This document shows, piece by piece, positions 32,027 to 32,148 of a stretch of 34,986 nt of DNA (the stretch's first letter is position 1; every line of letters begins with the position of its first letter). The DNA is from a virus. The translations under genes and the position numbers were made by a program. The stretch is taken from UHGV virus genome UHGV-0285842, one strand, 5' to 3'. The notes beneath the pieces were generated by a model, which worked only from the letters and a program-made list of their open reading frames with translations, was not told where the DNA came from and ran no database searches.

Positions 32027-32148
32027 GTGTAGGGTTAGTGTAGGTGTGTAGGTTTCATAGTGTAGGTTTGAGGGTGTTATAGTGTAGGTTTACTGACTAG
32101 TGTAGTGTAGGCCAATCCCTTTAAAGCGTAGGTTTGTAGTGTAGGTTT
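32027..32148. repeat. iteron-like array: at least six copies of (A)GTGTAGGTTT with irregular 13-23 bp spacing
   Basis: TGTAGGTTT at 32047, 32061, 32083 and 32140, CGTAGGTTT at 32127, degenerate copies at 32027, 32038 and 32103. Confidence 0.7.

Follow-up and report, generated by a model that had tools for sequence, protein, structure and literature searches.

Single-Rep iteron origins, such as those of P1 (oriR and RepA), pSC101, F (RepE), R6K (pi) and pPS10 (RepA), consist of phased repeats of 17-22 bp in the same orientation beside an AT-rich region and near the initiator gene, with sites related to the repeats at or near the rep promoter. Rep proteins autoregulate through such promoter-near copies. 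We describe here a locus for which these origins are the closest working likeness: an array of short direct repeats and the gene for a 331-aa protein (p331) in the UHGV virus genome UHGV-0285842 (34,986 bases, called the window below), which is an Escherichia coli prophage of about 35 kb integrated by a large serine recombinase. Like the iteron origins, the locus has same-orientation phased repeats beside an AT-rich region and near a candidate initiator gene, and repeat-related sites at or near the promoter of that gene, consistent with autoregulation. One element-encoded protein together with the host machinery would suffice here as well, and p331 has a leucine-zipper-like dimerization segment. 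The locus differs from the iteron plasmids in several ways. The repeat core is about 7-13 bp, the element is an integrating prophage, and an unrelated gene for a 59-aa protein (p59) and a leader of ~340 nt lie between the array and the p331 gene; no DnaA box was found, and p331 has no match to a Rep family of Pfam, PHROGs, NCBIfam or the PDB.

Other known systems resemble the locus in part. The lambdoid ori/O(P) modules are swappable cassettes of sites and protein in the early rightward operon of temperate phages, in which the N-terminal domain diverges with the sites and the C-terminal part co-varies with a downstream partner, and the same is seen here. However, lambda has its iterons within the O gene, as four inverted-repeat sites of 19 bp each, whereas the 7-9 repeats here are direct and precede their gene by ~860 bp, p331 has no Phage_rep_O match, and no P-like or DnaB-like loader gene is present. 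P4 uses short direct repeats (8-bp class) in phased arrays as origin sites (ori and crr), and the window may likewise have a distant second site cluster (34219-34248), but the P4 alpha protein is a 777-aa primase-helicase and p331 is without such domains. Short phased direct repeats near a promoter are also found in R1 parC/ParR, in the pSM19035 omega heptads and in the phi105 operators, where a small autoregulating element-encoded protein binds cooperatively, as we propose for p331. Unlike in these systems, there is no partner NTPase here, the array is ~195 bp from the main promoter, and p331 is larger and has no match to ribbon-helix-helix or other known DNA-binding domains in Pfam. Because no family match was obtained, DnaA boxes are absent and the array-leader-p59-p331 layout is unusual, the locus, judged from its sequence, is outside every named initiator family.

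The array and its candidate partner are placed as follows.

32026-32148, plus strand: direct-repeat array, consensus tAGTGTAGGTTT, with seven exact GTGTAGG cores and two with one mismatch, all in a single orientation
33010-34005, plus strand: gene for p331, a 331-aa ORFan, the candidate array binder and initiator

The plus-strand sequence of the array is agtgtagggttagtgtaggtgtgtaggtttcatagtgtaggtttgagggtgttatagtgtaggtttactgactagtgtagtgtaggccaatccctttaaagcgtaggtttgtagtgtaggttt. The initial annotation of this DNA, made from the letters alone, had described an iteron-like array of at least six copies, 13-23 bp apart, in a region of ~1.2 kb that is free of open reading frames (ORFs). The copies and the region were borne out: seven exact and two one-mismatch copies sit in a gap of 1263 bp that separates a leftward gene for a 149-aa protein (p149, start at 31450) from the rightward p59 gene (start at 32714). 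The equivalent gap carries no annotated gene in any of the relatives and measures 1.2-1.5 kb, or 2.6 kb in locus L011, where an IS5-like element is inserted. When one mismatch is allowed, the nine plus-strand copies start at 32027, 32038, 32046, 32060, 32082, 32100, 32105, 32126 and 32139, with start-to-start spacings of 11, 8, 14, 22, 18, 5, 21 and 13 bp. Most of these are close to 11 or 22 bp, so the spacing given earlier was roughly right, although the real range is 5-22 bp. The nine copies are thus same-orientation direct repeats in helical phase (spacings of 11, 22 and 21 bp among them), as in iterons; the single minus-strand match in the gap is a one-mismatch 7-mer at 32007, which is variable among the relatives that share this repeat (type 1, below).

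We asked whether the array could be a neutral tandem-repeat expansion or a chance cluster. Copy number does vary among relatives, from 6 to 9 in type 1 and from 5 to 14 in a second type, which speaks for such an origin. But the enrichment is far above chance. GTGTAGG was found 11 times in the window against 2.0 expected, a number that none of 100 shuffles reached, and seven of the 11 copies are on the plus strand within 32027-32145. For the 12-mer TAGTGTAGGTTT with up to two mismatches there were 15 matches in the window against 2.7 expected, seven of them within the array. The cores are also more conserved than the spacers: among type-1 relatives, 2 of 61 core columns were variable compared with 11 of 58 spacer columns (p=0.007), and when locus L040 was added these numbers became 7 of 61 and 30 of 58 (p=3e-6). 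Changes in array length among type-1 relatives were whole units of 11 or 22 nt. The pattern of substitution indicates that the array is under selection.

The comparison was made with 34 related loci, which represent 19 distinct mosaics. At the equivalent position, these loci carry five unrelated array types.

Type 1: GTGTAGG, 6-9 copies
Type 2: CAGGGGCAA / TTTCAGGGGCAAAAAT, 5-14 copies
Type 3: CGGGGA, 13 copies
Type 4: GGAATCT(T/A)GGGG, that is GTGGAATCT(T/A)GGGG, 4-5 copies
Type 5: GTGCAGG / TTAGTGCAGGG, 5 copies

A sixth kind was present in a more distant relative (L033), whose large terminase is 77% identical; this locus has two adjacent arrays at 5356-5795, one of the CCCCGGTATTAGG type (7 copies) and one of TGTACAAGG (8-12 copies with a period of ~10 nt). 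A small second array, TGTAGGTATATTGGT in 2-3 copies, was seen at 6339-6400 of L007. The spacings in all types cluster near 11, 21-23 and 41-43 bp, and those of types 2, 4 and 6 are 21-23 bp. Unrelated arrays at the same position in every relative, each tied to a specific protein (see below), again argue against neutral expansion, and this explanation is effectively refuted. The initial annotation had named conservation of the repeat number in relatives as one mark of a functional array; this is too strict for copy numbers that vary as above, although an array is always present.

We next asked which protein follows the array. Among the neighboring proteins compared in eight loci, only the ~331-aa protein encoded at 33010-34005 followed array type, and in the whole set the array type agreed with the cluster of the p331 N-terminal domain in 34 of 34 loci. 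The identity of p331 is at least 93% within type 1, 29% between types 1 and 2, and 24-27% to type 3, whereas between types 1 and 2 p59 is 97% and the small terminase 89-97% identical. Types 1 and 2 each contain both of the leader variants that occur upstream of p59, three p59 clusters, and three to five p149 clusters. Because the type agreement is complete while leader, p59 and p149 reassort, we conclude that array and p331 are co-inherited although the ~860 bp between them recombine. The small terminase, p59, p149, the Rha-like protein, p200 and p75 were rejected as partners of the array, since none tracks array type (the Rha-like protein, p200, p75 and the small terminase were compared in the eight loci). 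The divergence of protein and repeat is graded. A protein 76% identical to p331 in the N-terminal domain keeps GTGTAGG (8 copies), and one that is 45% identical goes with the repeat TAGTGCAGGG, in which two bases are changed; the Salmonella homologue of type 4 (65% identical over its full length) goes with GGAATCTAGGGG instead of GGAATCTTGGGG of E. coli, a change of one base. Given the type coupling in 34 of 34 loci, the graded co-divergence and the conservation of the cores, it is very likely that p331 recognizes the repeat directly, and we are fairly confident from this co-variation that p331 binds the array. The earlier suggestion of a multi-site locus for an element-encoded protein is thereby strongly supported.

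The same comparison bears on the possibility that the array is a structural nucleoprotein site, either for packaging (cosB or pac) or as a centromere of the parC/ParR or omega heptad kind. The phage has a lambda-type terminase with a gpA large subunit and a Nu1-like small subunit, and p331, in which a coiled coil stands between an N-terminal domain and a C-terminal tail, is built loosely like small terminases. Short phased direct repeats also resemble those of R1 parC or of SPP1 and P1 pac. However, the small terminase does not track the array, being 89-97% identical between types 1 and 2 as noted, and its gene is more than 3.5 kb away behind an upstream gap of its own. As for a centromere, the early-region and end proteins scanned against Pfam and PHROGs include no ParA, ParM or TubZ, the annotation of a complete relative shows none either, and the element integrates by a serine recombinase and therefore does not need partition. 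A partition locus, which the initial annotation had also offered, is unlikely for these reasons, and we consider structural roles of either kind improbable.

p331 is modular. Residues 1-165 are basic (isoelectric point 9.8, net charge +12), a leucine-zipper-like coiled coil follows at ~188-220, and the C-terminal half is very acidic (net charge -32). Across types the N-terminal domains are barely alignable, with a common signature of approximately G-F-x-A-x-M-x-H-x-S-x-R-(N/D)-x-x-G, and the C-terminal part varies together with the downstream partner. Types 3, 4 and 6 have a second large protein after p331, type 1 has an 80-aa coiled-coil protein (p80), and type 2 has none. In types 3 and 6 and in the E. 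coli type-4 locus, the protein after p331 is a member of a family whose C-terminus reads RPTLRLVA, to which no similarity was seen for the 197-aa partner encoded in the Salmonella type-4 locus. The distant relative L033 thus encodes two large proteins downstream of its arrays, one of the p331 family and the other of the RPTLRLVA-ending ORFan family. Five of six representative p331-family proteins end in -AA (YAHAA, LDFAA, IRKAA, VRRAA, IREAA; the p331 C-terminus is encoded at 33991-34005). Such an ending resembles ssrA-like C-terminal degradation signals for ClpXP, and by this analogy p331 may be an unstable protein.

Searches with p331 returned little. p331 and its neighbors gave only coiled-coil noise in Pfam (also at E<=10), PHROGs, NCBIfam and PADLOC, and Pfam showed no helix-turn-helix or peptidase S24 domain in p331. 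A phmmer search with the N-terminal domain against 1.84 billion representatives found three true relatives, all from the same prophage family, and tblastn had no match among 50,697 phages and 72,556 plasmids. A further homologue search was filled up by type-2 proteins that are nearly identical to one another. Profile searches of the PDB gave no credible match (best E 0.054, to an unrelated eukaryotic protein). AlphaFold2 models had a mean confidence (pLDDT) of 44 from the single sequence and 46.5 from a six-sequence alignment, which is unusable; a Foldseek search of the PDB with such a model gave no match with E<0.6, a result that is meaningless because of the pLDDT of 44-47.

The following features of the gap, of the operon and of repeat-like sites outside the array bear on what the pair does.

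32146-32342: AT-rich block adjoining the array, with the palindrome ATCAAAAATTTTGAT, its second copy and an extended -10 element
32152-32166: palindrome ATCAAAAATTTTGAT, with an imperfect second copy at 32303-32315, exactly 149 bp apart
32254-32262: extended -10 element TGcTATAAT, between the two palindromes
32343-32371, plus strand: near-consensus sigma-70 promoter TTGACA-17-TATACT (11/12 matches), kept in relatives
32491-32613, plus strand: operon leader with three LexA-box-like CACTG-N10-CAGTG sites and a boxA-like element
32491-32510, 32509-32528 and 32594-32613: the LexA-box-like sites, with scores of 15.9, 19.7 and 14.5, ranking 1st, 2nd and 4th in the window
32573-32591: boxA-like element CTCTTTAGCAATTCGTGCT, resembling the rrn and lambda boxA antitermination element
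32714-32893, plus strand: p59 gene (59 aa), first in the rightward operon
34021-34263, plus strand: p80 gene (80-aa coiled-coil protein), after p331 and found only with type-1 p331
33217-33228, minus strand: inverted isolated repeat copy CAGTGTAGGTTT within the p331 gene, kept in all type-1 loci
34219-34230 and 34237-34248, minus strand: repeat-like copies TTGTGTAGGTTT and AAGTGTAAGTTT, both inverted, in the 3'-terminal part of the p80 gene, kept in all type-1 loci

The initial annotation had pointed to AT-rich DNA beside the repeats, and indeed the 40-mers of highest AT content in the gap (85% AT) begin at 32146-32152, the right end of the array. The AT-rich block is kept beside four different array types and in L033, and it is a candidate unwinding or host-factor region. 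The promoter at 32343-32371 presumably drives the p59-p331-p80 operon; its -35 hexamer sits within a TTGACA-N2-TGTCAA inverted repeat. The sequences and the spacing of palindromes and promoter (32152-32371) are maintained even in L033. The ATCAAAAATTTTGAT palindromes and the -35 inverted repeat look like operators of some dimeric regulator.

We propose that the basic N-terminal domain of p331 would read the ~11-bp repeat and that, with copies about one or two helical turns apart, the bound molecules would be lined up on one face of the DNA. p331 would then open the adjoining AT-rich block and recruit host replication proteins, and it would regulate its own operon through sites near the promoter. 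Array and p331 would in this way form an iteron-type theta origin with a new kind of autoregulating initiator, to which we give an even chance. Several observations point in this direction: the repeats are phased, in a single orientation and adjoined by an AT-rich block; inverted copies, half-sites or a copy just upstream of -35 occur in relatives; p331 is modular, with a divergent N-terminal domain and a variable C-terminal part that matches a variable partner; and no other replication candidate was recognized in a phage that must replicate. The modularity of p331 is reminiscent of lambda O and P. A replication origin, as suggested at the outset, is still the best reading that we can infer. 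The inverted copies in the p331 and p80 genes could be analogous to P1 incA or P4 crr and make up another control locus, or their conservation could come from coding constraint alone.

The initial annotation had placed the replication genes beyond the right edge of the window. This was wrong, because the prophage ends ~2 kb past the window and has no recognizable replication gene there. In complete relatives, that segment holds one or two small ORFs, a Nu1-like small terminase, sometimes an LprI-family gene, and attR. The candidate cognate protein is instead encoded inside the window, at 33010-34005. In scans of early-region, attachment-end and cargo proteins against Pfam and PHROGs (and of a subset against NCBIfam and PADLOC), neither a replication gene nor a repressor was recognized, and the annotation of the rest of a complete relative contains neither.

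The absence of a recognized repressor leads to the explanation that competes most directly with an origin. The array could be a multi-site operator and p331 a transcription regulator, which would serve either as the immunity repressor or to turn the divergent early operons on or off; cooperative binding of p331 would then control the rightward p59-p331 promoter, the leftward promoter or both, and the array types would be immunity or regulatory specificities. Because the phage is also without a recognizable repressor, the argument from the sole unassigned function fits immunity equally well. Phage immunity regions typically have swapped cassettes of protein and site, and phi105 and mycobacteriophage L5 have operators made of direct repeats. 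In two relatives with the variant-2 leader (L009 and L039), the last cognate copy lies 11-17 nt upstream of -35, L008 has a repeat copy in the promoter spacer, and weak promoter-like sites flank or lie inside the array of the window (32054-32083, plus strand; 31999-31964, minus strand). In contrast, 5-14 same-orientation copies in helical phase would be unusual for an operator, and in the window the array is ~195 bp from the strong promoter; the -35 inverted repeat and the two ATCAAAAATTTTGAT palindromes 149 bp apart are better operator candidates. p331 has no helix-turn-helix or peptidase S24 domain in Pfam, as noted. Strain BS74R-D carries two prophages of this family, L043 in ycdX and L014 at another chromosomal position, which are 94.5% identical; their arrays are the same, and neither p331 nor p59 differs between them. 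This double lysogen is weak evidence against immunity, because homoimmune double lysogens can arise.

The leader provides a further point against an immunity repressor. The LexA-like sites, scored with a position weight matrix made from SOS boxes, occupy positions -223, -205 and -120 relative to the start of p59 in every variant-1 leader, and variant-2 leaders lack them. They suggest that the operon may be expressed at induction and not in lysogeny, that is, under putative SOS control. Altogether, we regard an operator function as rather unlikely, though it is the main alternative.

Several observations nevertheless weigh against an origin. Relatives with the variant-2 leader lack the AT-rich block, and in them the array adjoins the promoter of the operon, an arrangement that looks like an operator. 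The gap has no perfect DnaA box, only DnaA-like 9-mers with one mismatch, and no match to the IHF consensus WATCAANNNNTTR. The LexA-like sites are 110-240 nt past the predicted promoter, and another reading of them is as weak hairpin terminators ahead of T runs. Part of the association between array and p331 is physical linkage, because the two are only ~860 bp apart. Many type-2 loci have two or three non-cognate GTGTAGG copies at or inside the operon promoter. Finally, p331 matched no known Rep or O initiator family in the searches above, and its fold models are of no use. The non-cognate copies are perfect GTGTAGG and occur in type-2 prophages with the variant-2 leader (L008 at 6830-6880, L012-L015, L017, L026, L028, L043 and L044); one of those in L008 is the copy in the -35/-10 spacer. 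They may reflect cross-regulation between co-resident prophages or be a recombination scar.

Other elements were noticed in the gap and leader. The boxA-like CTCTTTAGCAATTCGTGCT is kept in every leader variant, with two copies in variant-2 leaders and in L039. In the window it is followed by a hairpin, and the same leader also has three terminator-like hairpins; this region may be a nut-like antitermination site.

32112-32122, plus strand: second motif CCAATCCCTTT, inside the array, with others at 31753 and 31827 and degenerate ones at 31684 and 31696

Three copies of AATCCCTTT had been said to flank the repeats. Their positions (31753, 31827 and 32114) are correct, but the third is inside the array. 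Three copies compare with 0.48 expected, and one of 100 shuffles reached three. The wider family, AATCC(C)TTTC with its complement GAAAG(G/T)GATT, has members at 31684, 31696 (minus strand), 31753, 31768, 31827 and 32114, that is, in the left half of the gap with one copy in the array. It is independent of array type, and relatives with other array types have copies in or beside their arrays. The second motif may be the site of a conserved accessory protein.

The left part of the gap (31640-31910) contains short G+C-rich hairpins with GNA triloops (CAACC-GAA-GGTTG, ATCCC-GAA-GGGAT, ACGCC-GTA-GGCGT and GCGAAGC) together with mirror forms (GCGC-TTC-GCGC and CGGC-TAC-GCCG), which make up an inverted repeat of ~100 nt that ends in a T run (31883-31905). 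RNA folding gave z=-5.5 for the plus strand and z=-3.0 for the minus strand, and the stems are kept in relatives despite base changes. This cluster may encode a non-coding RNA, act as a terminator or insulator, or consist of single-strand DNA signals. The preceding 84 nt (31557-31640) are 76-82% identical to an intergenic element of RB49-like T4-type phages (Krischvirus). These phages have one to three copies of it, as in KFS-EC, where it is found between genes 35 and 36, and GNA-triloop hairpins come after it in RB49 and KFS-EC too. Such an element is unexpected in a temperate siphovirus-like prophage, and it may be related to the cassettes of promoter plus stem-loop (PeSL) described for RB49 (PMC2839356). 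An Rfam scan of 28400-34986 gave no match at E<=1.

A second link to Krischvirus was found among the tail genes. The segment 16919-19036, within an ORF for a 1135-aa tail fibre (17224-20631, minus strand), has 97% DNA identity to the distal long tail fibre gene of KFS-EC, a lytic T4-type phage of the Krischvirus group. This identity indicates, on sequence grounds, a recent exchange of a host-range module between the temperate prophage and Krischvirus phages.

Further genes of the window are the large serine recombinase (1832-3526), an M15 endolysin, a portal, a fused capsid gene, a Rha-like gene and a lambda-type gpA large terminase (26578-28482, minus strand); tail genes are annotated in relatives. 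The small terminase has 184 aa and matches phrog_57 (E 1e-11) and, weakly, Pfam Nu1; its gene (23529-24083 in L001) would be ~1-1.5 kb past the right end of the window. Both terminase genes are on the minus strand and ~7 kb apart, with the entire early region and the array between them, a split layout that is unusual for a lambda-type terminase. p59 has paralogues at 29175-29435 and at 28570-29172 (a 200-aa protein with two domain copies), which share a motif of ~55 residues, for example RGRPCRFNAEQMADIA...GISIAQFYKNMKKLDIKF and ARPVKFTREMIVDIA...GIDRSGFYKLMKKYEIQIK. The three proteins (28570-29172, 29175-29435 and 32714-32893) gave no family match and may be DNA-binding regulators. Two minus-strand ORFs of 369 and 156 aa (3600-5104) between integrase and endolysin are absent from the copy in strain DEC5A. 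They showed no convincing family, only a weak PD-Lambda-1 match (E 0.005), and may be a cargo or defence module.

The prophage copy in DEC5A measures 35.3 kb and interrupts hicB; other copies interrupt ycdX. The 31400-33000 region was found in 58 of 5426 complete E. coli genomes and was always chromosomal, and for one type-2 protein the number of contigs reached at least 1000. Besides E. coli, the family is found in Shigella, Salmonella, E. fergusonii and E. marmotae. No close relative was found among sequenced phages, where the nearest large terminase is 43.7% identical, and the large terminase had no relative when single genomes, one for each species, were scanned with it; a literature search on hicB and serine-recombinase prophages returned nothing relevant. 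In strains PE15 and HeN100, an ISApl1-mcr-1-pap2 colistin-resistance transposon sits in the prophage ~400 bp downstream of the p331 gene (L006 at 9061-13428 and L011 at 6750-9117).

The pairing of array and p331 is the first concrete handle on replication and the maintenance of lysogeny in a phage whose early region consists entirely of ORFans, in a prophage family that is common, has no sequenced phage relative and in some copies carries mcr-1. With it come at least six naturally occurring pairs of protein and site specificity, for what would be a new DNA-binding domain. If the origin reading is true, there would be a new initiator family. We tentatively suggest that p331 would found it, with a basic, beta-rich N-terminal domain, a leucine zipper, an acidic tail that often ends in -AA, and at least six interchangeable specificities. 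It is conceivable, though somewhat short of an even chance, that in E. coli, Shigella and Salmonella a temperate phage of 35 kb replicates with one or two ORFans and otherwise only the host machinery. With similar reserve, we suggest that the origin and its initiator may be exchanged as one cassette despite the unrelated DNA between its two halves.

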